Source: Persicimonas caeni
Lineage (GTDB): Bacteria > Myxococcota_A > Bradymonadia > Bradymonadales > Bradymonadaceae
DNA: 64,000 bases
Assembly (NCBI RefSeq): GCF_006517175.1
Contig: NZ_CP041186.1
Coordinates: forward strand, 3,125,074-3,189,073
Direction: 5' to 3'
This document shows positions 22,752 to 48,504 of the stretch, piece by piece. Each line of letters opens with the position of its first letter. Positions within the stretch are counted from its first letter, which is position 1. Position numbers and translations under genes: made by a program. Below the pieces are notes generated by a model. The model had not been told where the DNA came from. It ran no database searches and worked only from the letters and a program-made list of their open reading frames with translations.

Positions 22752-25547
22752 ATGGCAAAGCCCAACGACCCCACGCATTCACCCGCCGTCGACCACCGCG
22801 CGCTCGAGCGCAGTGCGGCGCACGCGCCGGTGGCGCTCTACCAGTTTCAACGACTCGACGACCGGGCGCACATCCCCTTTGTGACCGAGCCGGTCGAGCG
22901 CGTTCTCGGCGTCGACGCCGCGACCATGATGCGCGAGTTCGACCTCGACTGGCTGGCTGCGCGCGTGGACCCGAACGACTGGGAGGATTTCTCCGACGCC
23001 GTCGCCCACTCTTGCCATACGGGCGAGACGTTCGACCAAACATTCCGCTTTCGGGCCGGCGAGGACCAGCCGTGGCGCTGGATTCGGGCGACCTCAGTGG
23101 CCGAAAACAACGCGTCGGGGCGGGTGTGGCACGGCTCGTTGCAAGATGTCACCAGTACGATTGAAAAGCGCCAGGCGCTCGATCTGACCCGCCGACGCCT
23201 GTCGACGCTGGTCGAAAATGTCTCGGTGGGCTTGCTCGTCGAAGATGACCGCGGCCAAGTCGAGCAGCTCAACCGCACCCTCATCGAACTGTTCGCCGTC
23301 GACTACGACACCGACGATCTCGCCGGCCTTCCAATCGAAAAATGCCGCGAGATTCTAGCCCCCCGCTTTGCCGAGCCCGACACCGCCGTCGCCTGGTTCG
23401 CCCAGCGCCGGCGCGAGCGCAAACCCGCCCGCCACACCTTCTCCATGGGCGACGGGCGTGTCCTCGAGTGCATCTATCGCCCGCTGACCGACACCAGCGG
23501 CGAGGGCGCGCACCTGTGGCAGTGGCACGACGTCACCGACGACAAACGCGCCGAGGGTCAATTGCGCCAGGCCAAAAGGGAGGCCGAGGCCGCCGTGGCC
23601 GCCAAGAGCGAGTTCGTCGCGCGCATGAGCCACGAGCTGCGCACGCCGCTGAGCGGGATCTTGGGCATCACCGAATTGATGACGCGCAGCCCGCTGACCG
23701 AGGAGCAGCACGAGTATTGCGACATCATCGCCGCCTCGGGTCACACCCTGTTGTCGATCATCAACGAGGTGCTCGATTTCACCCGCGGCGAAGAGGGCAA
23801 GCTCGACCACCAAAGCGGCCCCTTCGATCTGTACGAGGTGCTGTTCGGCGCGGCCAAGATGTTGATGGCCAACGCCGCCAACGCCGGCCTCGATCTGGCC
23901 GTCCATTACCCGCCCGACGCCCCGCGCACCTTCGTGGGGGACGCGCGCAAGTTACGCCAAGTGGCGCTGAACCTGATCGGCAACGCCATCAAGTTTACCG
24001 ACGAGGGATACGTGTGCGTGCGCGTCGACGTCTCCGAGCCGGTGGGCGCCAGCAGCAAGGTGCGCGTGGAAGTCTGTGACACCGGCGTGGGCATCCCGCC
24101 CCTCGACCAAGATCGCCTCTTCGAGGCGTTCACCCAGCTTCCTGGCCAGCATCGCCCCGGCACCGGGCTGGGGCTGGCCATCTGCCGACACTTCGTCGAA
24201 TCGATGGGCGGCACGATCGGCGTCGACAGCACCGTAGGCTCTGGCTCGACCTTCTGGCTCGAGCTCGATCTGCCGCGATTCGAGGAGGCAACGGGCGATG
24301 TGCTGCACACGTCGCTCAACGACCAGCGGCTCCTGGTGGTCCACGAGTGCGTGGCGGTGCGCAAGCTCACCGAAGACTACCTGCGCTACGCCGGCGCGAG
24401 CGTCCACAGCTTCGCCTCCGTCGAAGAGGCCCTCGCCAAACTCGACGTGCTCTGTGCCGCGCCCTTCGACGCCCTGCTCGTCGACGAGCAACGCAGCGCC
24501 CAATCGCTGCGCGAGGAACTCTCCCGGCGTCAAGCGGACCCACCGGCGCTGATCTTGCTCGACCACCGCCGCCAACGCGCCGCAGGCGATCACGACACCC
24601 CGAGCCTCGAGCAGCCACTGCACATCCACCACCTGCTCGACACCGTCGGCGCGGCGTTGAGCCGCCGCCAGGACCATGACGAGACGGTCCACGATCGCAA
24701 CCTGCGCTACTGTCGCACGCGGCCCGTGACCGACCCGCGCATCAAACGGGTCAACCGACCGCGACGCGTGCTTTTGGTCGAAGACGACCCCATCAACTGC
24801 ACCGTGGTCACGCGCATGCTCGAGACCTTACGCTGCGCGGTCACCCACGCGCCCGACGGCCCCGACGCGGTGGCCGCAGCACAAGCCAGCGAGTTCGATC
24901 TCATCTTGATGGATTGTCAGTTGCCCACGTTTACGGGCATCGAGGCGACCCGGCGAATCCGTGGGCTCGACACCGAGCGCACCACACACCAGCCGATCCT
25001 CGCGCTCAGCGCCAACGTGATGCCCGAGTTCCGACAGGCGTGCATCGAGGCGGGGATGGACGACTTCCTGCTCAAACCGGTCAACCGCGACCAGCTCTCC
25101 CGGGCCCTGCTCGAATGGTGCGGCGGCGAGACGTTGGACGAAGCCTCGTCGGCCGCCAGCGACCGTATCGAGCCGCCGGTGGTCTTCGACCGCGACGCCC
25201 TGCTGGCTCGCTTCGACTACGAGGAAGACCTGGTCGATGCGGTCGTCGATGCGTTCTGCCAAGATCTGCCCCGGCGGCTGGATCTGATGCGCGAGGCGGT
25301 CAAATTGCGCCGCAGCGAAGATCTCGACCGCCACGCCCACACCCTCGCAGGCGCCGCCTCACAGGTGGGCGCCGATACCATCGCGCAGGCTGCCGAGCGG
25401 ATTCGCCAGGCGATTCGCGCCCACGACTGGGACCGCGTGCGCTACAATATCGGCTGGCTTTTCGAGGAGAGTCAGTTGTTCGGAAGATTGATCAGCGGAG
25501 AGCTGACCTCGGTGATCGACGAGTCCGAGGACGAGACGCCATCGTAA
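22752..25547 (+). CDS. Multidomain hybrid sensor kinase (PAS x2-3, HisKA, HATPase, degenerate REC, REC, Hpt)
   Basis: H-box MSHELRTPLSGILGITELM. HATPase boxes NLIGNAIKFT, DTGVGI and GTGLGLAI. REC has VLLVEDDPINC...LILMDCQLP...LKP. C-terminal Hpt (HAHTLAGAASQVGA). Confidence 0.85.
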   Translation: MAKPNDPTHSPAVDHRALERSAAHAPVALYQFQRLDDRAHIPFVTEPVERVLGVDAATMMREFDLDWLAARVDPNDWEDFSDAVAHSCHTGETFDQTFRFRAGEDQPWRWIRATSVAENNASGRVWHGSLQDVTSTIEKRQALDLTRRRLSTLVENVSVGLLVEDDRGQVEQLNRTLIELFAVDYDTDDLAGLPIEKCREILAPRFAEPDTAVAWFAQRRRERKPARHTFSMGDGRVLECIYRPLTDTSGEGAHLWQWHDVTDDKRAEGQLRQAKREAEAAVAAKSEFVARMSHELRTPLSGILGITELMTRSPLTEEQHEYCDIIAASGHTLLSIINEVLDFTRGEEGKLDHQSGPFDLYEVLFGAAKMLMANAANAGLDLAVHYPPDAPRTFVGDARKLRQVALNLIGNAIKFTDEGYVCVRVDVSEPVGASSKVRVEVCDTGVGIPPLDQDRLFEAFTQLPGQHRPGTGLGLAICRHFVESMGGTIGVDSTVGSGSTFWLELDLPRFEEATGDVLHTSLNDQRLLVVHECVAVRKLTEDYLRYAGASVHSFASVEEALAKLDVLCAAPFDALLVDEQRSAQSLREELSRRQADPPALILLDHRRQRAAGDHDTPSLEQPLHIHHLLDTVGAALSRRQDHDETVHDRNLRYCRTRPVTDPRIKRVNRPRRVLLVEDDPINCTVVTRMLETLRCAVTHAPDGPDAVAAAQASEFDLILMDCQLPTFTGIEATRRIRGLDTERTTHQPILALSANVMPEFRQACIEAGMDDFLLKPVNRDQLSRALLEWCGGETLDEASSAASDRIEPPVVFDRDALLARFDYEEDLVDAVVDAFCQDLPRRLDLMREAVKLRRSEDLDRHAHTLAGAASQVGADTIAQAAERIRQAIRAHDWDRVRYNIGWLFEESQLFGRLISGELTSVIDESEDETPS

Positions 25548-25578
25548 TGAAGACCGGGGGCTCCATTAAGACACACTG

Positions 25579-26307
25579 CTAAGACCCACTTCGGTCGTCG
25601 AACGAGTTGATCTGGAAGCCCACACCGCGAACCGTCTGGATGAGCTCGACGTCGAAGCGCCGAAACTTCTTGCGCACTCGGCGCACGTGGCTGTCGATGG
25701 TGCGCTCGCTGACGACCGTATCCTCGTAGACCTGCTCGATGAGCTCGGCGCGGGGAAACACTCGCCCGGGCGCGCTGGCCAGCACCTGCAAGATCTCGAA
25801 CTCGGTCTTGGTCAGCTCGACGTCCTCACCGGCCCAGACCACTTGATACTGGTTCAAATCGAGCACCAGCGGGCCTAGCTCGATAAGCCCCTCGTCACCG
25901 GCGCGCTCGGCGCTTACCGGCTCCTCGACGGTGCCCGAGCGACCGGTACGCCGGAGCACCGCGCGCACTCGAGCGAGCAACTCGCGCGGGTTGAACGGCT
26001 TGCTGATATAGTCGTCGGCCCCCAACTCCAGGCCCACAATGCGGTCGATCTCGTCGGCGAACTTCGACATGAACAAAATCGGGACTTCCGAGCGCTGCCG
26101 AATGTAGCGGCAGATGTCTTCGCCGCGCATATTCGGCAAAATATTGTCGAGAACGACGATGTCGAATGCATCGGAGTCGAACACCTCCAGGCAGTCTTCG
26201 CCCGTCGTTGCCTCGACGGTCTCGATTCCTGCGCGCTGGAGCGTACGAGTCACCAATGTCAACGTGGTCGGATCGTCGTCGACCACCAGACAGGTTAGGT
26301 CAGCCAT
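25579..26307 (-). CDS. OmpR/PhoB-family response regulator
   Basis: REC (VVDDDPTT...IVVLDNILPNMRGEDI...SKPFNPRELLARVRAVLRR) plus a winged-helix trans_reg_C domain (LTKTEFEILQVLASAPGRVFPRAELI). Confidence 0.85.
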   Translation of the reverse strand: MADLTCLVVDDDPTTLTLVTRTLQRAGIETVEATTGEDCLEVFDSDAFDIVVLDNILPNMRGEDICRYIRQRSEVPILFMSKFADEIDRIVGLELGADDYISKPFNPRELLARVRAVLRRTGRSGTVEEPVSAERAGDEGLIELGPLVLDLNQYQVVWAGEDVELTKTEFEILQVLASAPGRVFPRAELIEQVYEDTVVSERTIDSHVRRVRKKFRRFDVELIQTVRGVGFQINSFDDRSGS

Positions 26308-26481
26308 AGAAGAGAACTAGGGCAAAGGACTTCTATTGCGACGCAAATGGCCCCAAAAACTCCATCAGCGCCTGAAAGGTGCTAAACCACTAGATATCCT
26401 ATAATTTCTGGACAGTTGTGCAAGTGGCTTTGCAAAAAACGCGCAAAAAGGTGGGTTAACGCCGCGGGGAGAATACGCGCG

Positions 26482-27192
26482 TCATTCGCAGACAAGCTGG
26501 AAGCCGACACCACGCACGGTGCGGATCGGGTCGACGTCGAAATCACGAAATTTTTCTCGAATACGACGCACGTGGCTGTCGATGGTGCGCTCGCTGACGA
26601 CGACATTGTCATCGTACGCGCGGGCCACCAACTCCTCGCGGGTGTAGACGCGCGACGGCCAGCGTGCCAGCGTGCTCACCAGATCGAACTCGGTTTTGGT
26701 GAAGTCGATGGCGTGCTCGCCCCAGAAGGCTTTGTAGGCGTGCAGATCGAGGCGAAGCTTGCCGACTTCGAGTTCGTTGGTGTCGGCGCTCGGTTGGGGG
26801 GTGGGTTTGTGCTGGTCTCGCGCCGAGCGGCGCATCACGGCACGGACTCGCGCCAGCAGCTCGCGCGGATTGAACGGCTTGGCGATATAATCGTCGGCGC
26901 CCAATTCCAAGCCGACGATTCGGTCGACGTCGTCGGCGAATTTGGAGACGAACAAAATCGGCACGTCCGACTCGGCGCGGATGTGGCGGCAGACTTCCTC
27001 GCCGTCGACCTCGGGCATGACGTTGTCGAGCACCACCAAGTCGAGGTCGGTGGAGTCGAACAGTTCGATGGCCTCAGCGCCCGTGGTCGCCTCGATGATA
27101 TCGAAGCCCGCCCGGGTCAACGTCTTGACCACGATGGCGCGGCTGGTCGGATCGTCTTCTGCGACAAGTGCCTTTTCTCGAGCCATAACCAA
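26482..27192 (-). CDS. OmpR/PhoB-family response regulator (paralogue of 25579-26307)
   Basis: Same architecture and about 60 % identical over the REC core (VVLDNVMPEVDGEEVCRHIR...AKPFNPRELLARVRAVMRR). Confidence 0.85.
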   Translation of the reverse strand: MVMAREKALVAEDDPTSRAIVVKTLTRAGFDIIEATTGAEAIELFDSTDLDLVVLDNVMPEVDGEEVCRHIRAESDVPILFVSKFADDVDRIVGLELGADDYIAKPFNPRELLARVRAVMRRSARDQHKPTPQPSADTNELEVGKLRLDLHAYKAFWGEHAIDFTKTEFDLVSTLARWPSRVYTREELVARAYDDNVVVSERTIDSHVRRIREKFRDFDVDPIRTVRGVGFQLVCE

Positions 27193-27512
27193 GTACTTTT
27201 ACTGTTCACGACGTCATCCACATCGGTAGCCCACACAGGGAGCCTATCCGATGGCGCTCGCTCTACCGGGGCATTCCCAAAAGAATCGAGTCATCATCAC
27301 AAAGCGTATATGTCGAGCATTCGGCTTTAATGAAGCTAATGTAGTCGGAACCGCCCACATTGCAACAGAACTATCCGGCCATGCGCTTTGGGTGAATTAG
27401 ATGCAACAACGACCGCTCGAGTTGCATTTTCTCGAAAAACACAGAAACGGGTTGCGAAGCCCATGTACACGCACGTATCTTCACAGCAACAAATCCCCAC
27501 GTTCTTTGGGAA

Positions 27513-29927
<2,415 letters not shown>

Positions 29928-30092: not shown

Positions 30093-30875
30093 ATGGAAGA
30101 GTTTCTCCAGATTGCACTGTCTTTCCCGACGGTCATCTTCTCGGGCATGCTCATCGGCGTGTTGCTGTACTGGACGATGGTCATCGTCGGCGCGGTCGAC
30201 ATCGACTTATTCGATCTCGACATCGATCTCGACACCGACTTCGACATCGACATGGACCTCGACGTCGACGCCGATGTCGACGGTGACTTCGACGTCGACG
30301 CCGACGGGCCCAGCGCAGGCATCATGCATTCGTTGATGGCGGCCATCGGCCTGGGGACCGTGCCGGTGACCATCATCGGCAGCATCGTCACCCTGGCGGC
30401 CTGGTTTTTGTCCTTCGCGGCAGTCTACTACCTGGGCCCGATGCTCGGCACCAGCGTCTTTGCCGGCCTGGGCATCGTGGTGGTCAGCTTCGTGTTGAGC
30501 CTGCCGATCACCTCGGTCTTCACCCACCCGCTCAAGGGCATCTTCAAGACTCACACGCACACCGGCGGCCAGACTCTGGTCGGCAAGCTGTGCAAAGTCA
30601 CCTCGGGCTCGGTCACCCAGACCTTCGGGCAGGCCGAGGTCGACGACGGCGGCGCAGGGCTGCTGGTGTCGATCCGCTGCGAGACCGAAGGCCTGCTGAA
30701 GCGTGGCTCGCGCGCATTGATCATCGAATACAACGCCGAACAAGATATCTACTTCGTCGAGCCCTATGACAACTTGCTGGCTGACGATGACGATGAAGTC
30801 GTCTTCGACACCGCCCAGGCGACCGACGACGCCGTACAACCCCAGCGAAACAAACAACTCGAGACGAATGAGTGA
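30093..30875 (+). CDS. YqiJ/DUF1449-like inner-membrane protein with C-terminal NfeD-type OB-fold and an unusual (D-x)n acidic loop
   Basis: Several TM segments, the loop DIDLFDLDIDLDTDFDIDMDLDVDADVDGDFDVDADG, and a C-terminal beta-rich segment (TLVGKLCKVTSGSVTQTFGQAEVDD...ALIIEYNAEQDIYFVEPYD) typical of NfeD-like partners of SPFH proteins. Confidence 0.6.
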   Translation: MEEFLQIALSFPTVIFSGMLIGVLLYWTMVIVGAVDIDLFDLDIDLDTDFDIDMDLDVDADVDGDFDVDADGPSAGIMHSLMAAIGLGTVPVTIIGSIVTLAAWFLSFAAVYYLGPMLGTSVFAGLGIVVVSFVLSLPITSVFTHPLKGIFKTHTHTGGQTLVGKLCKVTSGSVTQTFGQAEVDDGGAGLLVSIRCETEGLLKRGSRALIIEYNAEQDIYFVEPYDNLLADDDDEVVFDTAQATDDAVQPQRNKQLETNE

Positions 30876-30920: not shown

Positions 30921-33080
30921 ATGGACCCGATATCAGGAATGAGCGTGGCGACGATCGTGTTGGCGGCCGCCGCCGCGGTGATCATCCTCGGCGGCTTCGC
31001 CTTCGCCATCAAGTGCTATGTAAAGGTCGATCAGGGCCAGGCCTTGATCATCAACAAGACCACCAAAGAGCCGGAGGTCACCTTTACTGGCGGGTTGGTC
31101 ATCCCGGTGTTCAACCGCGCCGAGTACATGGATATCTCGCTGAAGACGGTCGAGATCGACCGGCGAGGCAAAGAGGGTCTGATATGTGCGGACAATATCC
31201 GCGCCGACATCAAGGTCACCTTCTTCGTGCGCATCAACAAGACCGCCGAAGACGTGCTCAAGGTCGCCCAGTCCGTGGGCTGCAAGCGCGCCTCCGACCA
31301 GGACAAAATCGAGGAGCTCTTCGTCTCGAAGTTCTCCGAGGCATTGAAGACCGTCGGTAAGCAGCTCGAGTTCGAGTCGCTGTACCAGGAGCGCGTGCAC
31401 TTCCGCGACAAGATCATCGAGATCATCGGCCAAGACCTCAACGGCTACGTCCTCGAAGACGCCGCCATCGACTACCTCGAGCAGACCCCGGTCGAGAACC
31501 TCGACCCGCAGAATATTCTCGACGCCCAGGGCATCCGTAAGATTACGGATCTGACCTCGGTCCAGCGGGTTCAGACCAACGAGTTCAGCAACAAAGCCAA
31601 GAAGGATATCGGCAAGGACGACCTCGAAACCAAGATGGCGCTGCTCGAGTACGAGCGCCAAGAGGCCGAGGCGACCGCCAAGCAGCAGCGCGAAATCGGC
31701 GTGGTCCAGGCGCGTGAGAAGGCCGAAGAGGCCGAAATCACCGCCAAGGAAGAGGCGCGCGCCCAGAAGGCGCACATCCAGGCGCAGCAAGAGATCGAAA
31801 TCCAGAAGATCAACAAGCAGCGCGAGGAAGAGGTCGCCCAGAAAAACCGCGAGCGCATCATCGCGGTCGAGACCGAAAACGTCGAAAAAGAGCGCCAGCT
31901 CCAGGTCATCAGCCGCGAGCGTGAGACCGAGCTGCAGCGCATCGAGAAGGACAAAGAGGTCGAGGTCGAGAAGAAGAATATCGCCGAGATCGTGCGCGAC
32001 CGCGTCTCGGTCGACAAGACGGTGGCCGAAGAGGAAGAGCGCATCCAAGACCTGCGCGTGATCGCCGACGCCGAGCGCCAAAAGAAAGCCGCGGTCATCG
32101 CCGCCGAAGGCGAGGCCGAGCAAGCGCTCGTCAAAGACATCAAAGAGGCCGAGGCCCAAGAGGCCGCCGCCAAGCACCGCGCCCAGCAGAAGGTCATCGA
32201 GGCCGAGGCCGAGCTCGACGCCAGCGAGCGCACCGCCAAGGCCAAAAAGCAGCTCGCCGAAGGTATCGAGGCCGAAGAGGCCGCCGCCGGCCTGGCCAAA
32301 GTCCGCGTCAAAGAGGCCGACGCTCAGGCCAACGAAAAGCAGGGTCTGGTCGACGCCCGCGTGCGCAAAGAGCAGCTGCTCGCAGAGGCCGCCGGCGAGG
32401 AAGAAAAGGGCATGGTGGAAATCCGCCTGACCGAAAAACGCGCCGAGGCCATCGAGAAGGAAGGCCTGGCCCAAGCCAAGGTCACCCGCGAGAAGGCCGT
32501 GGCCGAAGCCGCCGGCGACCAGGAAAAAGGCCTGGCGCAGGTGCGCATCAAAGAAGCCGAGGCCGACGCCATCCGCAAGGAAGGCATGGCCCGCGCCGAG
32601 GTCCGCGCCCAGCAGGGCGAGGCCGACGCCAAGGCCATCCAGGACAAGCTGGCCGCCGAGGCTGCCGGTCTGACCGAGAAGGCCGAGGCGATGAAGAACT
32701 TCGACAAGGAAGGCTACGAGTTCGAACGCTTCCAGATGGAGCTCGACCTGCAGCGCGAAATCAGCATGGAGCAGCTCGAGAAGTCGATCGAGATCGCCAA
32801 GGCGCAAGCCGCGGTGCTCGGAGACGCCTTCAAAGCCTCCAACATCAACATCGTGGGCGGCGACGACGCCTTCTTCGACAACTTCACCAAGTCGATCACC
32901 GTCGGCAAAATGGTCGAGGGGTTCATCGACACCAGCCCCACGGCCCGCAAGGTGCTCGACCAGGTCATGAACAAGGTCAGCAAGGACGAGGAGCCCGAGG
33001 CGCCCAAGGCGTCGGAGCCGACTGCATCGAAGGCTGACGACGTCGAAGAGGCGGTCACGGATCTGACGCCCGGAGAGTGA
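30921..33080 (+). CDS. Flotillin-like SPFH/Band-7 domain protein (YqiK/FloT-like) with very long E/A/K/Q-rich coiled-coil tail
   Basis: N-terminal TM helix, SPFH domain (KVDQGQALIINKTTKEP...VFNRAEYMDISLKTVEIDRRGKEGLICADNIRADIKVTFFVRIN) and flotillin-type EA repeats (AEAAGEEEKG.., AEAAGDQEKG..). Confidence 0.8.
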   Translation: MDPISGMSVATIVLAAAAAVIILGGFAFAIKCYVKVDQGQALIINKTTKEPEVTFTGGLVIPVFNRAEYMDISLKTVEIDRRGKEGLICADNIRADIKVTFFVRINKTAEDVLKVAQSVGCKRASDQDKIEELFVSKFSEALKTVGKQLEFESLYQERVHFRDKIIEIIGQDLNGYVLEDAAIDYLEQTPVENLDPQNILDAQGIRKITDLTSVQRVQTNEFSNKAKKDIGKDDLETKMALLEYERQEAEATAKQQREIGVVQAREKAEEAEITAKEEARAQKAHIQAQQEIEIQKINKQREEEVAQKNRERIIAVETENVEKERQLQVISRERETELQRIEKDKEVEVEKKNIAEIVRDRVSVDKTVAEEEERIQDLRVIADAERQKKAAVIAAEGEAEQALVKDIKEAEAQEAAAKHRAQQKVIEAEAELDASERTAKAKKQLAEGIEAEEAAAGLAKVRVKEADAQANEKQGLVDARVRKEQLLAEAAGEEEKGMVEIRLTEKRAEAIEKEGLAQAKVTREKAVAEAAGDQEKGLAQVRIKEAEADAIRKEGMARAEVRAQQGEADAKAIQDKLAAEAAGLTEKAEAMKNFDKEGYEFERFQMELDLQREISMEQLEKSIEIAKAQAAVLGDAFKASNINIVGGDDAFFDNFTKSITVGKMVEGFIDTSPTARKVLDQVMNKVSKDEEPEAPKASEPTASKADDVEEAVTDLTPGE

Positions 33081-33358
33081 CGTCGTTCGCGGAGCGGCTG
33101 CTTGCTGCCCGCGGAGCGCGCCCCGTTGTTTGGGGCGCCCGTGCAGCCCCGGGGCTCGCCCCGGGGGTTTGATCGACAATCACCACATGCGTTCGGCTAT
33201 GCGACGTTACGTTGTGCCGACACGTGGCGTTCAGAGTTGCCCCGAGTTCAGGAGACGCACGGTTAACCCCAAGGCAAGCCATGGGGCTGCACCGGCGAGG
33301 GCTCCGCTGGGGGCAAGCCCCCGCTCCGCATGATTCCGGCGTTCGCAGGCCATTTGCC

Positions 33359-36300
33359 ATGTCCGAAGAATCCCAAAAAGCCACCGAGACCCAAACCGAC
33401 CAACCCCAGGTCTCGTCGTCCAACTACGACATCATCCGCAAGCGCCTCGAAGACCAGGCGCGCCAGCTGCGTGAGCGCACCGACAAGCTCAACGCCGCCC
33501 GCGCCGACCTCTTCGGCGGCACCGAGATGACCGTCATCGGCCAAGAGCGCATCCGCACCGAGAACAACTGCATCCCGCAGGACATCGTCAACGTCGGCGG
33601 GCGCATGCTCTTTGGCTACAACGTGCATATCGGCCTGAAGACCAAGACCGAGGTCGACGACGTCTTCAGCCTGCACGCCTTCGACAAGTCCGACGACGGC
33701 TTCAAGCTCGAGTCGGTCGGCCAGGATTCGGACGCCAACTTTCTAAGCGACGCCAAGTTCGTCAAAGACTTCGACGAGCTGTACGCCTACTACAAAGACG
33801 CGCGCCTGCGGCAGCTCATCAAGCTCGAGGGCCGACTGCTGGGCATCTTCCAGATCGGCTCGACCCTCGAGGACCGCCGCGTGCTTCGCTGGGGCTTGGA
33901 CGCCCAGGAAAACGTCGAGTACATCGACAACGCCGGCGACCGCGACCTCAAGGCGCCCGACACCCACGACTTCCAGTGGCAGGGCGTCACCCGCGACGAT
34001 CACGTCAAGGGCAAGCACCCGCATATCAGCATCCTCGACGAGGTCTTCGTCGAGACCGTCGGCGGCGACCTGACCATCAAGATCGAGGACAACACCGACG
34101 ACGGCAAAGGCATCTACAGCGAGCCTGTGGAGGACCTGCACCAGTCGCTGGGCGACGGGGAGTTTTTCTGGGCCAAGATCGGCAACCTGATCTTGCTCAA
34201 GATCTTGCCGTACCGCGAGGAGGCGTGGCGCTACTTCGTCTACAACACGCTCACCCAAAAGGTGGAGCGCCTCGACGCCATCGGCCAGTCGTGCATCCGG
34301 CTGCCCGAAGACCAGGGCGTCATCTTCCCGGGCGGCTTCGTCTTGTCGAACGGCCAATCGAAGCGCTTCGACGCCACCGTCGAAGGCCTTCGCATCCACC
34401 AGGTCATCCGCTCGGCCAACGGTGAGGACGTCCTGTACGTCTTCTATCATCCCAAAGAGGGCGACTACCTACTGCTGGCCTACAACGTCATCCGCAAGGA
34501 CGTCCAAAACCCGATCAACTGCCACGGCTACTCGCTGTTCGACGACGGCACGATGATCGTGTTCCGGTTCATGGGCGACGAGCCCACGCGCATCCATCCG
34601 ATGCAGATCTGGCAGACGCCGTTTATCTCGGATGAGCACGCCGCCCAGCAGCCCAAAGACGACTCGCTGCTGAGCAATATCGGCAACGCCGAGCTGGTGC
34701 GCGGCATCTCCGACGCCTACAGCCTCTGCTCGATGGTCGGCGACCTCGAGCCGTCGATGCCGGTGTACGAGGCGCTCATCGCCACCGCCCAGAAGCTGCT
34801 CGACGCCTACTTCTGGCTCGACAAGGACGAGGCGCAAAACCTCGCCGAGGTCGCCACAGAGATCATCTCGACCGCCGAGCTCGTCATCGACGAGTTCCAG
34901 AAGGTCACCGCCCTCAAAAAGCGCGCCAAAGAGGCCCTCGAAGAGGCCGAGGCCAAGCAGCGCTCGCTCTTCACCGACGTGCGCTACCACGATTGGAACC
35001 GCATCGAGCGCTTCGTCGAGGGCCTCGACAAGCTCCGAAAGCAGCGCGGTCATCTGATCACGCTCAAGGAGATGCGCTACATCAAAGTCAGCCGCCTCGA
35101 CGAGCTCGAGGCCGAGGTCAGCGAGCGCTACGACGACCTGAGCCGGGCGACCGTCGACTTTTTGCTCCAAGACGAGGCGCTTCGCACGTATCAAGAGGGC
35201 CTCGACGAGCTCGACGCCACTGTCGAAAACCTCGAGAACACCAAGCAAGCCGCCGAGCTCGAAAAGAAGCTCGACGAGATCAACAAAGGCCTGAACCTGT
35301 TGACCGAGGTCATCAGCGGCCTGCAGATCGACGACCCCACTAAACGCACGAAAATACTGGAGAATATCGGCGAGGTCCTCAGTCGCCAGAACCGCGCCCG
35401 CGCCCGGCTCGAGCGCAACACCAAGGAGCTGCAGGAAAAAGAGGGCAAGGCCGAATTCGCCGTCCAATTCCAGCTCTTCAGCCAGAGCGTGACCAGCGCG
35501 CTGGGCATGTGCGACACGCCTGAAGCGTGCGACGAGCAGCTCACGCGTTTGATGGTCCAGCTCGAGGAGCTCGAGAGCCGCTTTAGCTCCTTCGACGGCT
35601 ATCTGGGCCGCCTCGCCGAGAAGCGCGAAGAGGTCTACGAGGTCTTCGAATCGCGCAAGCAAGCCTTGCTCGAGGAGCGCCAGCGCAAGGCGAACAACAT
35701 CGCCAGGAGCGCCGACCGCATCCTCAAGGGCGTGGTGCGCCGCGCGTCGAACATGAAGTCGGTCGACGACCTGAACGCCTACTTCGCCTCCGACGCCATG
35801 GTCATGAAGGTGCGCGACCTGGTGACCAAGCTTCGCGAGCTCGAAGAGGACGTCAAAGCCGACGACATCACCACCCAGCTCAAGGCCGCCAAAGACAAAG
35901 CGGTGCGCCAGCTCCGCGACAAGCTCGACCTGTTCGAAGGTGGCGACAACGTCATCAAGTTCGGCCAGCACCGCTTCAGCGTGAACACCCAGTCGCCCGA
36001 GATGACGATGGTGCCGCGCGAGGTCGACGGCGAGCCGCGCATGGCGCTGCACATCACGGGCACCGACTTCTTCGAGATCATCGACGACGAGGAGTTCAAC
36101 AAAACCCGGCGCTTCTGGGACCAGCACCTCATCTCGGAGACCGACACCGTCTACCGCGGCGAGTACTTGGCCGCCTCGATTCTCTTCGACGCCGAAGCGG
36201 GCGAAAACGAGCTGACGGTCGCCGAGTTGCAGCGCCGCAAAAAGTCCGAGAAGGGCCTGCAGCCGCTCATCCGCGAGTACATGAACGAGCGCTACGACGA

Positions 36301-38749
36301 GGGCTACGAGCGCGGCGTCCACGACGAGGACACCGCTAAAATTCTCGGAGCGTTCTTGGGCATGTACGCCACCGCCGGCCTGCTGCGCTTTACGCCGCGC
36401 GCCCGGGCGCTGGCGACGATGTTCTGGACGTTCGCCGAGCAACCCGACCGGCGCAAGAACTGGGGCCGAAGAGGCGTGAGCCTCGGGCGTCTGCGCGAGA
36501 TCTTCGAGCACGGCAAGCCGCTCGAGGCATTGGGCGAAGAGCTCGCCCAAGAGATAGAAGCGTTCGCCGCCACCTTCGGTGCGGGGGCATCCCTGCCCTC
36601 GCCGCGAGAGCTAGAAGCACTCGCACCGAAAAAGGGCCTCTGCCGCGAAGCCGGACGCTACCTCGCCGAAGAGCTCGTCGACACCAACCCCCGCTTCGTC
36701 GAATCGAGCGAAGCGGTCGCCCTGCGCGACAAGTTCTTCAACTATCTCGACCAAAAGCACACTCGCCTCGACTTCGACGAGGACTTGAAGCAACTCCAAG
36801 GCAACCTCGCCGCGCGCTGGGAGCTCGTCATCGCCTGGCTCACGGGCTTCGCCGACAGCCAGCTCGACGACGACATGTCGCACCTGATCCCCGAGGTCGC
36901 CGCGCTGATCTTGACCGACGGCACCCTCGAGCGGCAGACCGCGCAGGCGCGCACCACCGCCGAAGTCACCGACCTTCTGGGCGACCACCCGCGCATCGAC
37001 GGCGGCGCGCTCGAGCTTCGCCTCGACGAGTTTTTGACCCGGCTTCGCCGCTATATCGACGAGCACGTCCCCGCCTACAAGGAGTACAAAAAGCTCAGCC
37101 GCGACTTGCTCGAGCGCGAGCGCCGGCGCCTTCGCGTCGACAGCCTCGAGCCGCAGGTCTTCAGCGGATTCGTGCGCAACCGCCTCATCGACGAGGTCTA
37201 CCTGCCGCTCATCGGCGACAACCTCGCCAAGCAGATGGGCACCGTCGGCGAGGACAGCCGCTCGGACCGAAGCGGCCTGCTCCTGCTCATCTCGCCGCCC
37301 GGCTACGGCAAGACGACCTTGATGGAGTATATCGCCGACCGCCTCGGCCTGATGTTCATGAAGATCAACGCACCCAGCCTGGGTCACGACGTCACCTCGC
37401 TCGACCCCGACGAGGCGCCCAACGCCACCGCGCGAAACGAGGTCGAAAAGATCAACCTCGCCCTCGAGATGGGCAACAACGTGATGCTCTATCTCGACGA
37501 TATCCAGCACACCCACCCCGAATTCTTGCAGAAATTCATCTCGCTATGCGACGCCACCCGCCGCATCGAGGGTGTCTGGAACGGACGCACCAAGACCTAC
37601 GACCTTCGCGGCAAGCGCTTCTCGGTGGTCATGGCCGGTAACCCGTACACCGAGTCGGGCGAGCGCTTCACGATCCCCGACATGCTCGCCAACCGCGCCG
37701 ACACCTACAACCTGGGCGACATCCTCAGCGGCAAGCAGGACGCCTTCGAGATGAGCTATATCGAAAACGCGCTCACCTCGAACAAGGTCACCGCCCCGCT
37801 CGTCACCCGCGAGCGCCAAGACATCATGCGCTTCATGAAGATGGTCGACGGCCAGCAAATCCCGCTGACCGAGTTCGACCACGCCTACTCGTCAGTGGAG
37901 GCCGGCGAGATCGTCAACGTGCTCGAAAAGCTGGTGCAAATCCGCGACGTGGTGCTCAAGGTCAACCAGCAGTACATCATCTCGGCGGGCAAAAAGGACG
38001 AGTACCGCACCGAGCCGCCCTTCCAGCTGCAGGGCAGCTACCGCAACATGGGCCGCATGACCGAGAAGGTCGCCTCGGCGATGAACGACCGCGAGGTCCA
38101 AGAGATCATCGACAACCACTACAACCAGGAATCCCAGACGCTCACCACCGGCTCCGAGCAAAACCTGCTCAAGCTCGCCGAGCTTCGTGGCACCTTGACC
38201 GAGGAGCAAAAAGAGCGTTGGGAAGAGATCAAACGCGAGTACAAACGCCGCAAGATGATGGGCGGCGACGACGACCCCGTCAGCCGCGTCGCCGGCCCCC
38301 TGGCCACGCTCGTCCAACGCCTCGAAGACGTCCACACCGCCCTGCAGACCGACACGGTCTCCGGCGAGCTGGGCGAAATCCGCGGGGTGCTCGAAAAGGC
38401 CGTCGATTCGGCAGCCAAAGCCACAGCCAAAAAGCCGTCGACCGTCGACCGCCCCAAGCCCAAACAACAGCAGCCGGCAGCAACCGCCCCGGCCACCGCC
38501 GAAGCCTTGTCCGAAGCCCTGCTCTCCCTGCAACAAGCCAAGCTCGAGGTCCAGGTCGTCGGCGACATGCCCTCGAAACTCGGCGAGGTCCTCGAGAGCC
38601 AACTCGGCCTCATCGAAAGCGCCATCTTGCCCTTGGCCAAATTCGTCTACCGCGAAGCCGAAGACGACAAACGCCGCGACGCCCAACTCGACGAGGTCAT
38701 GCGCAAGCTCGACGCGCTGCGCGGCACGCCCGTGCCGGAAGGCGAGTAA
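33359..38749 (+). CDS. Giant (~1796 aa) multidomain protein: N-terminal beta-rich domain, extended coiled coils, C-terminal dynein/MoxR-like (AAA_5-type) ATPase. Function unknown
   Basis: Uninterrupted ORF (track 33212-38749; start placed at MSEESQKATE). Walker A LLLISPPGYGKTTL, Walker B VMLYLDDIQH, sensor-1-like VVMAGNPYTE. About 500 aa of heptad-rich sequence between the N-terminal and ATPase domains. Co-directional with and 130 bp downstream of the flotillin gene. Confidence 0.6.
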   Translation: MSEESQKATETQTDQPQVSSSNYDIIRKRLEDQARQLRERTDKLNAARADLFGGTEMTVIGQERIRTENNCIPQDIVNVGGRMLFGYNVHIGLKTKTEVDDVFSLHAFDKSDDGFKLESVGQDSDANFLSDAKFVKDFDELYAYYKDARLRQLIKLEGRLLGIFQIGSTLEDRRVLRWGLDAQENVEYIDNAGDRDLKAPDTHDFQWQGVTRDDHVKGKHPHISILDEVFVETVGGDLTIKIEDNTDDGKGIYSEPVEDLHQSLGDGEFFWAKIGNLILLKILPYREEAWRYFVYNTLTQKVERLDAIGQSCIRLPEDQGVIFPGGFVLSNGQSKRFDATVEGLRIHQVIRSANGEDVLYVFYHPKEGDYLLLAYNVIRKDVQNPINCHGYSLFDDGTMIVFRFMGDEPTRIHPMQIWQTPFISDEHAAQQPKDDSLLSNIGNAELVRGISDAYSLCSMVGDLEPSMPVYEALIATAQKLLDAYFWLDKDEAQNLAEVATEIISTAELVIDEFQKVTALKKRAKEALEEAEAKQRSLFTDVRYHDWNRIERFVEGLDKLRKQRGHLITLKEMRYIKVSRLDELEAEVSERYDDLSRATVDFLLQDEALRTYQEGLDELDATVENLENTKQAAELEKKLDEINKGLNLLTEVISGLQIDDPTKRTKILENIGEVLSRQNRARARLERNTKELQEKEGKAEFAVQFQLFSQSVTSALGMCDTPEACDEQLTRLMVQLEELESRFSSFDGYLGRLAEKREEVYEVFESRKQALLEERQRKANNIARSADRILKGVVRRASNMKSVDDLNAYFASDAMVMKVRDLVTKLRELEEDVKADDITTQLKAAKDKAVRQLRDKLDLFEGGDNVIKFGQHRFSVNTQSPEMTMVPREVDGEPRMALHITGTDFFEIIDDEEFNKTRRFWDQHLISETDTVYRGEYLAASILFDAEAGENELTVAELQRRKKSEKGLQPLIREYMNERYDEGYERGVHDEDTAKILGAFLGMYATAGLLRFTPRARALATMFWTFAEQPDRRKNWGRRGVSLGRLREIFEHGKPLEALGEELAQEIEAFAATFGAGASLPSPRELEALAPKKGLCREAGRYLAEELVDTNPRFVESSEAVALRDKFFNYLDQKHTRLDFDEDLKQLQGNLAARWELVIAWLTGFADSQLDDDMSHLIPEVAALILTDGTLERQTAQARTTAEVTDLLGDHPRIDGGALELRLDEFLTRLRRYIDEHVPAYKEYKKLSRDLLERERRRLRVDSLEPQVFSGFVRNRLIDEVYLPLIGDNLAKQMGTVGEDSRSDRSGLLLLISPPGYGKTTLMEYIADRLGLMFMKINAPSLGHDVTSLDPDEAPNATARNEVEKINLALEMGNNVMLYLDDIQHTHPEFLQKFISLCDATRRIEGVWNGRTKTYDLRGKRFSVVMAGNPYTESGERFTIPDMLANRADTYNLGDILSGKQDAFEMSYIENALTSNKVTAPLVTRERQDIMRFMKMVDGQQIPLTEFDHAYSSVEAGEIVNVLEKLVQIRDVVLKVNQQYIISAGKKDEYRTEPPFQLQGSYRNMGRMTEKVASAMNDREVQEIIDNHYNQESQTLTTGSEQNLLKLAELRGTLTEEQKERWEEIKREYKRRKMMGGDDDPVSRVAGPLATLVQRLEDVHTALQTDTVSGELGEIRGVLEKAVDSAAKATAKKPSTVDRPKPKQQQPAATAPATAEALSEALLSLQQAKLEVQVVGDMPSKLGEVLESQLGLIESAILPLAKFVYREAEDDKRRDAQLDEVMRKLDALRGTPVPEGE

Positions 38750-38770: not shown

Positions 38771-38980
38771 CATCTTCCTCCCCCGCGTAGCGAGGGGAGG
38801 ACCGAGGAGGGGCGTCCCTTTCCATGTAGCGAAGCGAAATGGAGAGGGATTCAGGGAGAGGCCCCTACTACAATCGCCCGCAAGCAATCCGCCCCCCGCT
38901 ACGGGCAACGCACGTCGGCTACGCCTCCGTGCTCGCCCGCAGCTAAAAGTTCGTATCACCCACAAGGGGTTCGAGGACGA
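38771..38980. repeat. Composite repeat: half of a family-A element (catcttcctcccc...ggaggaccgaggagg) followed by a family-B element (ccgctacgggcaacg...ctcgcccgcagctaaaagttcgtatcacccacaaggggttcgagg)
   Basis: Sequence identity to 48056-48265 and to the B copies at 39285 and 39455. Confidence 0.8.
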
Positions 38981-39096
38981 GAAGCGGCTTCGTGGTTAGC
39001 AACCGCCGGGAAGCAACCCATTGGAACGAGCGTCGATCGTTGCTAGAATCCGAGTAGGCGCCCACACTTGGGCTGTGAGCATAGGAGGTGCTTCAA

Positions 39097-39395
39097 TGCC
39101 GCGTACCGAAATCAAAGAGCAAGCCCACAAACTTGTCGATGAACTACCAGACGACGCGACTTGGGAGGACCTCGAGTACAAGATCTATGTGCGTCGCAAG
39201 ATAGAGCGTGGCCTCGAGAGTATCGAGAAGGGAGAGACCGTGAGTACCGATGAGGTACGCGCACGCTTCGGACTGGATAAGAGAAGCTACGGGCAACGCA
39301 CGTCGGCTACGCCTCCGTGCTCGCCCGCAGCTAAAAGTTCCGTATCACCCACAAGGGGTTCGAGGTTGGAGTCCTGGCAGGAGAATGCATTTTGA
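39097..39395 (+). CDS. Small antitoxin-like/addiction-module-like protein (about 60-aa native core; C-terminal about 36 aa read through a repeat element)
   Basis: AGGAGG 7 nt upstream of ATG. The core MPRTEIKEQAHKLVDELPDDATWEDLEYKIYVRRKIERGLESIEKGETVSTDEVRARFGLDK resembles small antitoxin-type proteins. The reading frame then continues into the family-B repeat copy. Confidence 0.4.
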
Positions 39396-39542
39396 GCCGT
39401 CCGGAGCCTGTTGCTCAATTGTCTCGAACGGGCCGTTTGGGCAGGACCGACGATCGTGGAACCCCTTGTGGGTGCAAAAGAATTTGTAGCTGCGGGCGAG
39501 CGAGGCGTCCCGAAGGGCGCCGAGAGTTGCCCGTAGCGGGGT
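39285..39542. repeat. Family-B repeat pair in inverted orientation (39285-39366 direct, 39455-39542 inverted) forming a long hairpin with about 90-nt spacer
   Basis: cccacaaggggttcgagg ... cctcgaaccccttgtggg arms and the agctacgggcaacg.../...cgttgcccgtagc outer arms. Confidence 0.8.
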
Positions 39543-39560: not shown

Positions 39561-40916
39561 TCACGGCACCGTCGCCTGCCCGCTGCTATCACTGCCCCAA
39601 CAATGGGTCGTCCCATTGTCATCCACCCCGCAGGTATGCCACCGCCCCGCGTCGATGGACGTGAACACGACCGTCGTAGGCGGCGTCGATTGCCCGTAGG
39701 AGTCTTGCCCCCAACACTCGACCTGCCCAAAACCGTCGAGCACGCAGGTGTGGTTCCACCCCGACGAGATCTGCTCGTAGCCAGCCCCCGCTGGCGCGTC
39801 GCTCACCTCGCCGGCGTCGTCTTTGCCCCAGCAATTGACTTCGCCGCCCGTCGTCAGCGCGCACGTAAAGCTCTGGCCGACGCTGACCTGCGCGAAGCTG
39901 CCCTGGCGCACCTGGGCCTGGCCGTGGTCGCTGCGTCCCCAGCACCATAGCTCGTTCGACTCTTTGATCCCGCAGGTATGATGCGGCCCGGCGGCGATCT
40001 GCAAAAACTCGCCCGTCGGCGCCGAGGCCTTGCCGTCGTCGGTATTGCCCCAGCATTCGACCCGCCCGTCGACGCCGATCGCGCAGGCGTGCCGGCTGGC
40101 CGCGCTCACCTGCACGTACTCGCCGCCCAGCGGCGTCGCCATGCCGTCGGTGTCCGCGCCCCAGCACTGCAACTCGTGAGACATATCGATACCGCAGGTG
40201 TGCAGGCCCCCGGCGCTCACGTCGATGAAGCTCGCCTGCGGCGGCGTCGCCTGACCGGCGTTATCCGCGCCCCAGCACCGAACGGAGCCGCCGGCGGCGA
40301 TCTCGCAGGTGTGGTTGCCGCCGGCGCTCACCTGCGTGTCGATGCAGCTCGCGGTCGTGCTCGGCATCCAGTCCGACGAGACGGACGACGGAAGGCACAA
40401 CAGACACGCATCGTCGCTCTTGGCCTCGCCGCTCGAAAAACACGTGCCGTCGATCAGACACGCGTCCGCATTCACGCTGCCCTGCTGGCACTGCCCCAGA
40501 TCGTCGCACGTCCCCTCCCCGGTGCAGCTCAGCCCGTCATCGCAGCTCGCGCCGGGGGTCACGCGCTCCACGCAATTGCCGCGCAGACACACGTTCTCCA
40601 TGCACGGCGTGTCGATGGGCGCACACTCGACGTCCGCGCACAGGTCGGCCGCGTCCGCCTCTCCCGTATCCTCGTCGCCTGCATCCTCCCGGCCTCCATC
40701 CGGAGCGACGGTGCTGTCCTCCTCGACGTCACTCGACGCATCCTGGGGCTGCTCGGCGTCGCCGGCATCAGACACCCCCGCGTCGGCCGTGCCGTTCGGC
40801 TCGGGGTCGTCCGAACAGCCGCCCGTCGCCAGCACGGTCGCCAGCGCGACGAACAAAACAACCACCACACGACGGGATGCGGGCACGCGCCCCCGGGACA
40901 TCGAGTCTGACTTCAT
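39561..40916 (-). CDS. Secreted lipoprotein with RCC1/BLIP-II beta-propeller repeats and an N-terminal Cys-rich (EGF-like) module
   Basis: Signal peptide plus lipobox (VLFVALATVLATGGCSD). A D/E-rich linker, then a Cys-rich segment. Seven or more repeats of the CWGxxxxGQ / HTCG(I/L) type (SAGGLHTCGID, VSAASRHACAIG, IAAGPHHTCGIK...). Confidence 0.75.
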   Translation of the reverse strand: MKSDSMSRGRVPASRRVVVVLFVALATVLATGGCSDDPEPNGTADAGVSDAGDAEQPQDASSDVEEDSTVAPDGGREDAGDEDTGEADAADLCADVECAPIDTPCMENVCLRGNCVERVTPGASCDDGLSCTGEGTCDDLGQCQQGSVNADACLIDGTCFSSGEAKSDDACLLCLPSSVSSDWMPSTTASCIDTQVSAGGNHTCEIAAGGSVRCWGADNAGQATPPQASFIDVSAGGLHTCGIDMSHELQCWGADTDGMATPLGGEYVQVSAASRHACAIGVDGRVECWGNTDDGKASAPTGEFLQIAAGPHHTCGIKESNELWCWGRSDHGQAQVRQGSFAQVSVGQSFTCALTTGGEVNCWGKDDAGEVSDAPAGAGYEQISSGWNHTCVLDGFGQVECWGQDSYGQSTPPTTVVFTSIDAGRWHTCGVDDNGTTHCWGSDSSGQATVP

Positions 40917-41080
40917 ACAACTTCTCTCCAAAAGCATCGTCTTGATCAGGCGCCGTATCGCACTCTACAGACTTACCTTGCGGGCGCGTTTGCAAGCAAC
41001 CTGCGAGCACTGCTCACCGCAGTTGCCCAACCGGCCTCCCTTGGGGCACACTCGCCCAGCAAAACGTTTCTCCAGATTCG

Positions 41081-48055: not shown

Positions 48056-48265
48056 CAACATCTTCCTCCCCTGCGCGAAGCACAGCGGAGCGTAGGGGAG
48101 GACCGAGGAGGGGACTCCTCCTCCGCGAAGCAACGCGAAGTGGAGGAGGACCGAGGAGGAGGCCGGGCTCCATAATCGAACCCCGCTACGGGCAACGCTC
48201 GACTCCCTCCGGTCGCCTCGCTCGCCCGCAGCTACAAGTTCCGTTTCACCCACAAGGGGTTCGAG
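48056..48265. repeat. Composite repeat: family-A half-element + family-B element (second copy of the 38771-38980 arrangement)
   Basis: caacatcttcctcccctgcgcgaagca...ggaggaccgaggagg followed by ccgctacgggcaacgctcg...cccgcagctacaagttccgtttcacccacaaggggttcgagg. Confidence 0.8.
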
Positions 48266-48504
48266 GCTGTCGGCCCCGCAAGAAATCACGTCCCGCGCCG
48301 GTCGAAGCCAGACGCACAAGCGCCCAGGACCGCCGCACCTACAGGGCCGGAGGTTGTGGTGGATGAGCCGGTCGGGCCGGTCGAGCCGGTTGGGGTGTAG
48401 GACTCCCAGCCAGGTTGACCGGCCCCCGGGGCGGCCTACGCCGCCCGGCCCCCCGCCGCTCATTGAGCACACATAAATCCGTGTACTGGCCAAGAGGCCA
48501 ACTC

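Follow-up and report, generated by a model that had tools for sequence, protein, structure and literature searches.

In the searched text of a comparative-genomic study (Ravi et al. 2024, mSystems, PMC11237479), operons are described in which YqiJ/YuaF and Band-7/flotillin genes, with or without CesT/Tir and PspA genes, stand together with an ATPase composed of a propeller, a coiled coil and an AAA+ module. The operons that lack PspA, termed 'abbreviated', are reported there to be the more widely distributed ones, and the supplementary table gives the architecture of the ATPase as 'Betapropeller+Coiled-coil+AAA-ATPase'. YqiJ/YuaF proteins are NfeD homologues that are paired with flotillin-like SPFH2 proteins (Hinderhofer et al. 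2009, PMC2636767). According to a 2025 review (PMC7619361), a Vps4-like ATPase appears to be absent from bacteria. Here, we analyzed a 64,000-nt stretch of Persicimonas caeni DNA (contig NZ_CP041186.1, positions 3,125,074 to 3,189,073; hereafter, the window, numbered from its first nucleotide) that carries such an operon. Our main subject was the third gene of this operon (gene 3), at 33359-38749 on the plus strand, which encodes a protein of 1796 aa and is referred to below as the giant gene.

An earlier reading of the same sequence (the original prediction) had pointed to an unusual Walker B motif in the giant protein, with DD in place of DE. We found that this observation is correct and lies well above chance, and that the motif is a family-wide signature of a catalogued and previously described family. 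The gene family, its architecture and its operon have already been catalogued or published, and the P. caeni window adds an ordinary member. No discussion of the invariant DD Walker B motif, of the S-PPGYGKT P-loop or of a MoxR-type classification was found in the searched text of PMC11237479. The explanation that we favor, and that we hold to be reasonably probable, is that the giant protein, a MoxR-like AAA+ protein encoded in a flotillin/NfeD cassette, uses ATP to remodel membrane scaffolds of the SPFH or PspA type.

Results

Nucleotide-site motifs

The translation of the open reading frame (ORF) agreed with the length and the motif positions that had been given for the giant gene. An AlphaFold2 (AF2) model of residues 1240-1640, built on 50 homologues (predicted local distance difference test [pLDDT] 84.4, predicted TM-score 0.78), was used to place these motifs in the fold. 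In this model, the AAA+ module consisted of an alpha/beta domain at residues 1275-1455 and a lid at residues 1460-1633 (37181-38257, plus strand). The module had been described as single, as placed after the coiled coil and as spanning residues 1290-1500 or so; its number and order stood, whereas its span, with helix alpha0 and the lid included, was longer (residues 1275-1633).

The Walker B motif, L1377-YLDD-IQH-1384 (37487-37510, plus strand), contained D1380 followed by D1381, the latter in place of the catalytic Glu. The residues V-M-L-Y-L-D formed strand beta3 of the model, and the second Asp came right after it (E136-141 and D142 in the numbering of the modelled fragment). D1380 and D1381 thus occupied the canonical hhhhD-E positions, so no realignment recovered a Glu; the structure-based placement kept DD, and a canonical hhhhDE motif was not present in the giant protein (LYLDD). 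The DD pair was found in all 118 of the closest homologues with a recognizable Walker A motif, in all 31 genomes examined from four phyla (Myxococcota, Gammaproteobacteria, Actinomycetota, and Acidobacteriota), and in approximately 146 of the 149 representatives of the 50%-identity clusters that contain the region. Among the three representatives without DD, one read 'DTTQH', one was an apparent frameshift, and one was unaccounted for. Overall, about 264 of 267 family members examined carried DD. The residues Q1383 and H1384 were nearly invariant. The next four, T-H-P-E, varied (T/C/V, then H/N/D/S/A), so the histidine-rich stretch (QHTHPE) that had been noticed after the Walker B motif is not a family trait.

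The Walker A motif or P-loop, S1312-PPGYGKT-1319 (37292-37315, plus strand), retained K1318 and T1319 and had a Ser for the usual first Gly. The S-PPGYGKT form was found in 118 of 118 close homologues and in 134 of 136 representatives. The Ser in place of the first Gly of GxxxxGK[ST] is a second non-canonical feature of the nucleotide site, and it was absent from the original prediction.

Between alpha3 and beta4, the model placed a pre-sensor-1 beta-hairpin with a conserved sequence (residues 1402-1415, RIEGVWNGRTKTYD; 37562-37603, plus strand), made of two strands (fragment E163-168 and E171-176). The following segment (37619-37702, plus strand) consisted of invariant columns and comprised beta4 and sensor 1, FSVVMAGNPYTESG, with N1428, and then IPDMLANRAD with a putative arginine finger, R1446. 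The sensor-1 strand read VVMAGNPYTE, of which GNPYTE was invariant; N1428 followed beta4, and the placement of sensor 1 in MAGNPYTE was therefore borne out. A further set of invariant columns, QLQGSYRN (38024-38047, plus strand), belonged to the lid, contained the putative sensor-2 residue R1562, and lay at the N terminus of a lid helix in the model. The catalytic roles of N1428, R1446, and R1562 were assigned by position and are putative.

Clade of the AAA+ module

Among Pfam families, AAA_5 ranked first in each of the 31 members tested, with scores of 29.4-33.1 bits (gathering cut-off, 22 bits); its best match had an E-value of 9e-9 and covered profile positions 2-126 of 139. Structure comparison gave scores of 14.7 for midasin, 13-14 for the dynein AAA modules, and approximately 12-13 for ClpA, ClpB, NVL, and p97, and McrB scored 11.6-12.1, from rank 22 downward. 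The best Foldseek TM-scores were those of CbbQ (0.63) and NorQ (0.56-0.62), and McrB was outside the top 50. Foldseek E-values failed to separate RuvB, MCM, NorQ, CbbQ, ClpA, HslU, and Lon, all of which are families with a pre-sensor-1 hairpin. The closest solved structures were thus of the MoxR type. From the Walker B motif to the arginine finger, the giant protein read ...LDDIQH...RRIEG...FSVVMAGNPYTESGERFTIPDMLANRAD, which parallels ...ADEVNR...QVTIG... in MoxR 2R44. An hhalign comparison of the AAA profile with the 2R44 segment recovered the expected register for the sensor-1 part at a non-significant E-value (0.58), and it was not counted as evidence. NCBIfam searches with the giant protein gave sub-threshold RuvB matches only, and beyond the shared DD-IQ motif no initiator-type AAA+ fold was found.

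We conclude that the module is AAA_5/MoxR-like with a DD motif that is atypical of the clade, and that it is not specifically McrB-like. The original prediction had named an AAA_5/McrB-like clade that includes GTP-specific members. The AAA_5 half of that assignment held above the gathering score in every member tested, whereas the McrB half did not: McrB was not a preferred structural neighbor, and no McrC-like partner was present among the conserved neighboring genes. Nothing argues for GTP specificity of the module.

Domain layout and distribution of the giant protein

The product of 33359-38749 was identical, over an equal length (100% identity), to the NCBI protein 'DNA repair ATPase [Persicimonas caeni]'. 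Pfam DUF3686 (PF12458) matched residues 37-485 over its full profile (E 1e-204), and DUF7902 matched residues 606-690 (E 6e-26). Matches to AAA_22, AAA_5, and AAA at residues 1304-1432 were weak, yet above threshold.

An AF2 model of residues 1-1200 (pLDDT 86.2) began with a helix at residues 22-52. This was followed by an all-beta domain at residues 58-420 (33530-34618, plus strand), which formed the core of DUF3686, had a pLDDT of approximately 90 and 26 strands by DSSP, and is modelled as a roughly seven-bladed beta-propeller. Foldseek matched this region to generic propellers (Elp1, DCAF1, Ski8, tricorn, and prolyl oligopeptidase) with E-values of 1e-6 to 1e-4. A helical bundle and coiled coil followed at residues 437-858 (34667-35932, plus strand), with helices of up to 58 residues, and contained DUF7902. 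A small beta domain (865-907) and an all-helical domain (933-1185) stood ahead of the ATPase (together 35951-36913, plus strand), and residues 865-1185 had no match in Pfam or in PDB sequence searches. The protein ended, after the AAA+ module, in a low-complexity, helical, variable tail of approximately 155 residues (1640-1796; 38276-38749, plus strand). By tblastn, this tail was matched in the closest relatives only (3 of 83 loci), and its alignment consensus was mostly 'x'.

No second P-loop fold was present in the model of residues 1-1200. A VWA domain was not found by Pfam, and the same model contained no alpha/beta domain. Pfam and this model likewise gave no nuclease, protease, or other effector domain. 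Hydropathy revealed no hydrophobic or transmembrane segment, and the giant protein is soluble and cytoplasmic.

When the whole of residues 1-1200 was submitted to Foldseek, the top matches included the dynein heavy chain, IFT-A subunits, a nucleoporin, the clathrin heavy chain, and Vps18. Homology to dynein, IFT-A, nucleoporin, or clathrin was rejected; the alignments were long and had TM-scores of 0.05-0.13, which is at most an architectural resemblance of the propeller-plus-helix kind.

At least 6749 homologues of the giant protein were found at E ≤ 1e-10. At the same threshold, the AAA fragment matched 664 clusters (50% identity), in which the module lay nearly always at residues 1200-1650 or so of proteins with a length of 1600-2000 aa. 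When one genome per species was scanned, at least 590 species proved to carry the giant gene. The family ranged over Myxococcota, Gammaproteobacteria (Pseudomonas, Proteus, Xenorhabdus, Lysobacter, and Vibrio), Actinomycetota, Acidobacteriota, Deinococcus, and Bacteroidota, and included megaplasmids. Across phyla, the ATPase module was 63-71% identical, and the phyletic distribution was patchy. The order of propeller, coiled coil, and AAA+ module is real and family-wide. A C-terminal AAA+ module placed after a large recognition region is common, as in katanin, Vps4, FtsH, and dynein.

The operon cassette

The gene directly upstream of the giant gene (gene 2; 30921-33080, plus strand) encoded a protein of 719 aa of the flotillin-type SPFH (Band 7) kind, with one N-terminal transmembrane segment (residues 3-36 by hydropathy) and a long Glu/Ala-rich coiled coil. 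NCBIfam FloT matched residues 55-309 weakly (E 0.0019), Pfam Band_7 matched 2 of 13 orthologues (best, 9e-11), and the orthologue on pQBR103 is annotated as 'SPFH domain-containing protein'; searches of the PDB with the SPFH profile gave no match. Because of the first three observations, gene 2 is predicted to be a divergent SPFH/flotillin protein.

Upstream of it, gene 1 (30093-30875, plus strand) encoded a YqiJ/YuaF-type membrane protein (DUF1449, NfeD-like OB fold) of 260 aa with approximately three transmembrane segments (hydropathy segments 4-40, 77-115, and 113-147). Its assignment is based on the names of its homologues in NCBI and UniRef, 'DUF1449 family protein' or 'OB-fold-containing protein', DUF1449 being the former Pfam name of YqiJ. 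In gene 1 and nine orthologues, Pfam itself gave only weak, sub-threshold matches to YqiJ_N and YqiJ_OB (E 0.02-0.08). The NCBI model of gene 1 (FIV42_11685) has 207 aa vs. 260 aa for the ORF from ATG 30093. The first part of this longer ORF encodes a transmembrane segment, MEEFLQIALSFPTVIF..., which orthologues in other phyla conserve at their own N termini, so the deposited start of FIV42_11685 is probably too far downstream.

Both genes were conserved companions of the giant gene. An SPFH gene lay upstream of it in 69 of 83 loci or, once redundant loci and those with too little upstream DNA were set aside, in 67 of 69; in 60 of the 83, the small membrane gene came immediately before the SPFH gene. 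Unsupervised clustering of the flanking ORFs of these loci returned only the SPFH and small membrane genes and a pair consisting of DUF2170 (YjfI, CesT/Tir-like) and PspA_IM30. This pair stood immediately upstream of the cassette in 21 of the 83 loci, most of them gammaproteobacterial. The P. caeni cassette had no adjacent YjfI-PspA pair and therefore corresponds to the 'abbreviated' form of the operon. Variable effector genes were not found among the conserved neighbors.

Thirteen plasmid or chromid records carried the cassette, including pQBR103 of P. fluorescens SBW25; Streptomyces, Deinococcus, and Hymenobacter were also represented among the plasmid carriers. On pQBR103 (NC_009444.1, 87154-106269), yjfK/L/M/C-like genes (DUF2491, DUF350, DUF1190, and glutathionylspermidine-synthase-like) preceded the cassette, and a gene of the phospholipase D family lay approximately 9 kb downstream of it. 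The yjfK/L/M/C-like genes were rejected as general neighbors; a GspS-like neighbor occurred in only one other locus (L076).

Start codon and intergenic insertion

The open frame of the giant gene runs on the plus strand from 33212 to the stop at 38749. The original prediction had called the start uncertain, with a possible N-terminal extension from in-frame ATG codons at 33212 and 33281. The codon at 33281 is indeed an ATG in frame, whereas that at 33212 is TTG. The NCBI annotation uses ATG 33359. In 115 homologues, a leader that was short (6-50 residues; median, 22), acidic, and variable stood ahead of the conserved block SNY(D/E)IIRxRL, and the P. caeni leader, counted from 33359, has exactly 22 residues. 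In a related genome, where the orthologue is 81% identical, the stop of the flotillin-like gene overlaps the start of the giant gene as TGATG at the equivalent Met, so an N-terminal extension is impossible there. The GC content at codon positions 1/2/3 was 0.64/0.36/0.89 in the giant gene, as compared with 0.71/0.65/0.63 from 33212 and 0.81/0.65/0.69 from 33281 in the putative extension, which is a non-coding composition. With a start at ATG 33281, the protein would gain a basic peptide rich in Arg that resembles no orthologue. The predicted start, ATG 33359, is thus well supported by four independent observations (NCBI start, orthologue N termini, TGATG overlap in the orthologue, and codon-position GC content). 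The last three refute the extension, which is not conserved in orthologues; their N termini match ATG 33359. The absence of an obvious ribosome-binding site was confirmed, in that no Shine-Dalgarno-like sequence lay within 25 nt of this codon.

The 278 nt between gene 2 and the giant gene (33081-33358) are non-coding. They contain nested inverted repeats and fold into one long imperfect hairpin of approximately 250 nt (minimum free energy, -154 kcal/mol; z, -4.9). This spacer is absent from the 81%-identical orthologue, relative to which it is an insertion, and it is present in a single copy within the window. Rfam had no match anywhere in the window, the spacer included. The spacer could be an element resembling a miniature inverted-repeat transposable element (MITE), or a structured RNA by which translation of the flotillin-like gene is uncoupled from that of the giant gene.

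Other features of the window

Just upstream of the cassette, at 22752-29927, the window encoded two hybrid histidine kinases (PAS, HisKA, HATPase, receiver, and Hpt; 931 and 804 aa), with an OmpR-type response regulator on the minus strand at 25579-26307. An RCC1-repeat protein was encoded downstream of the giant gene on the minus strand (39561-40937). None of the kinases, the regulator, or the RCC1-repeat protein was a conserved neighbor in other genomes.

A dispersed repeat of approximately 80 nt occurred at 38898-38976, 39286-39365, 39454-39541 (inverted), and 48181-48266. Two copies were direct (100% and 91-99% identity), one was inverted, and one was a further partial copy 9 kb away. The repeat looks like a P. 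caeni element of the repetitive extragenic palindromic or MITE type that lies in non-coding DNA downstream of the giant gene. The same region contained a small plus-strand ORF from ATG 39096 (feature 39021-39395), which is preceded by a sigma-70-like promoter (39021-39049) and by the sequence AGGAGG (39083-39088). The first 60 or so encoded residues (MPRTEIKEQAHKLVDELPDD...STDEVRARFGL) look like a small antitoxin or regulator, and the ORF had no Pfam match. One copy of the repeat supplies its 3′ end, and insertion of the repeat may thus have changed the reading frame.

Discussion

If the giant protein is an ATP-driven remodeller of SPFH or PspA scaffolds, its AAA+ modules would form a ring, and the conservation of the trans-acting R1446 speaks for an active site to which more than one subunit contributes. 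The coiled-coil arms, each tipped by a propeller, would dock on the cytoplasmic face of the SPFH/NfeD assembly, and nucleotide turnover would drive assembly, disassembly, or client extraction at SPFH scaffolds and, where present, at PspA scaffolds. Such remodelling would resemble the action of MoxR proteins on their partner complexes and that of FtsH within HflK/C cages. With DD invariant and with the Walker A Lys, the sensor-1 Asn, the arginine finger, and the sensor-2 Arg all intact, the module is most likely a hydrolysis-competent but slow, partner-regulated ATPase, for which DnaA, a nucleotide switch with the same DD-[IV]-Q motif, is the precedent. A dead enzyme or a GTPase is less likely.

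Several observations weigh against the remodeller explanation. The tie between the giant protein and SPFH or PspA is genomic only, and the literature search found no experimental work on the ATPase of any family member. In the window, tblastn found neither YjfI/DUF2170 nor PspA genes, which leaves no PspA near this cassette. The DD motif could mean that hydrolysis has been lost. A canonical MoxR protein is a stand-alone protein of approximately 300 aa with a DE Walker B motif and a VWA partner, whereas the giant protein has 1796 aa, DD, and no VWA domain, and there was no VWA gene among its conserved neighbors. At the site of the helix-2 insert, the model contained a conserved 18-residue loop (fragment 99-116, beta2-alpha2) with no beta-hairpin by DSSP. 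Sequence and profile searches of the PDB (whole protein, full-length profile, and AAA-only profile) matched only the Walker A region (p97, Rix7, NVL, and RuvB), and they helped neither in assigning the AAA module to a clade nor in aligning the Walker B motif.

A bolder form of the same idea, in which the giant protein is the missing ATP-driven remodeller, would have a MoxR-like ring place six propeller-tipped arms on flotillin/NfeD cages, act, where PspA is present, on its ESCRT-III-like polymers in the role that Vps4 has in archaea and eukaryotes, and use DD as a slow switch, fired only once a partner completes or stimulates the active site. The conserved gene linkage points toward this form, which we nevertheless regard as unlikely. 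Somewhat less likely still is a hydrolysis-dead, nucleotide-binding scaffold that would stay ATP-bound and, as a static adaptor, link the flotillin cage to other factors. Essentially every member lacks the catalytic Glu, the first Gly of the Walker A motif is also replaced, by Ser, and long coiled-coil arms suit a scaffold. Against this, the sensor-1 Asn, the putative arginine finger, and the sensor-2 Arg are invariant across phyla, which would be unexpected if hydrolysis had been lost, and Asp retains a carboxylate at the site. The DD motif also has a precedent among AAA+ proteins in the DD-[IV]-Q motif of DnaA, whose PDB chains read LLIDDIQF, LLLDDVQF, or LLIDDVQF where the giant protein reads LYLDDIQH. 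DnaA hydrolyzes ATP and serves as a slow, partner-stimulated ATP switch; a DD Walker B motif is thus compatible with regulated hydrolysis. We give little credence to an anti-phage or conflict system, in which a large AAA+ sensor or effector and a membrane scaffold would trigger abortive infection. Such a role would suit the patchy phyletic distribution despite 63-71% AAA identity across phyla, the location of the gene on megaplasmids and chromids (pQBR103 and plasmids of Streptomyces, Deinococcus, and Hymenobacter), and weak PADLOC matches to LmuB and IetA. The LmuB match (residues 493-890, E 1e-6), however, covered the coiled coil only and the IetA match the Walker A region only, and a known defense system was rejected because similarity was limited to these parts. 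Effector domains in the giant protein and variable effector genes among its conserved neighbors were likewise not found, the protein is highly conserved and not fast-evolving, and its conserved partners are membrane-homeostasis proteins.

That the giant protein is an McrB-like, GTP-specific AAA+ NTPase is very improbable: AAA_5, its best Pfam match, covers McrB too, and the Walker B motif and flanking residues are atypical, but the structural ranking did not favor McrB, no McrC partner is conserved, and the sensor-1 motif differs. Hardly credible, and the least so of the explanations considered, is that the protein truly works in DNA repair, as an ATPase of the SMC/SbcC/RecN kind. This would agree with the NCBI and Pfam labels, with the long coiled coil, and with the weak match to the SMC-like LmuB; the protein, however, has no ABC-type split ATPase head, its first 1200 residues are without a P-loop fold, and Pfam found no SMC_N, AAA_23, or other DNA-binding or nuclease domain. 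Its sole NTPase is the MoxR-like AAA+ module, its conserved neighbors encode membrane proteins, and no paper was found that backs the name. Literature searches on DUF3686, on 'DNA repair ATPase' with flotillin, and on SPFH with MoxR returned nothing relevant. The name 'DNA repair ATPase' is probably wrong and a legacy of coiled-coil similarity to SMC/SbcC.

For this window, the outcome is mostly a clean-up, in that the start is settled, the motif is real and has a precedent, and the McrB/GTP idea is unsupported. The biology of the family is potentially important. Given its near-obligate linkage to flotillin/NfeD genes, and in gammaproteobacteria to PspA, the giant protein is the most evident candidate when an energy-consuming partner is sought for the SPFH and ESCRT-III-like scaffolds of bacteria. 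The invariant DD Walker B motif and S-PPGYGKT P-loop provide precise targets for mutagenesis (D1381, K1318, and R1446).

Comparison with known systems

McrB falls under the same Pfam umbrella, AAA_5, and is set apart from the giant protein by its sensor-1 motif, by the lack of a conserved McrC beside the giant gene, and by not being among the preferred structural neighbors. The pairings of HflK/C with FtsH, of other SPFH cages with AAA+ proteins, and of Vps4 with ESCRT-III are functional analogies only. The likeness lies in an AAA+ protein that is genetically coupled to an SPFH scaffold and, in gammaproteobacteria, also to the ESCRT-III-like PspA; FtsH and Vps4 belong to the classical clade, whereas the giant protein belongs to another clade and has neither a protease domain nor an MIT domain. 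The MoxR family (CbbQ 6L1Q, NorQ 9QH4, and MoxR 2R44; more distantly, midasin and the dynein AAA_5 modules) comprises related systems. The module of the giant protein shares only 12-17% sequence identity with MoxR proteins, shows no clear helix-2 hairpin in the model, and has DD where MoxR 2R44 has ADE in the Walker B motif. With the family described by Ravi et al. (DUF3686/DUF7902, 'DNA repair ATPase'), as far as the searched text of that study describes it, the P. caeni locus shows no structural difference and shares both the domain order and the operon partners.

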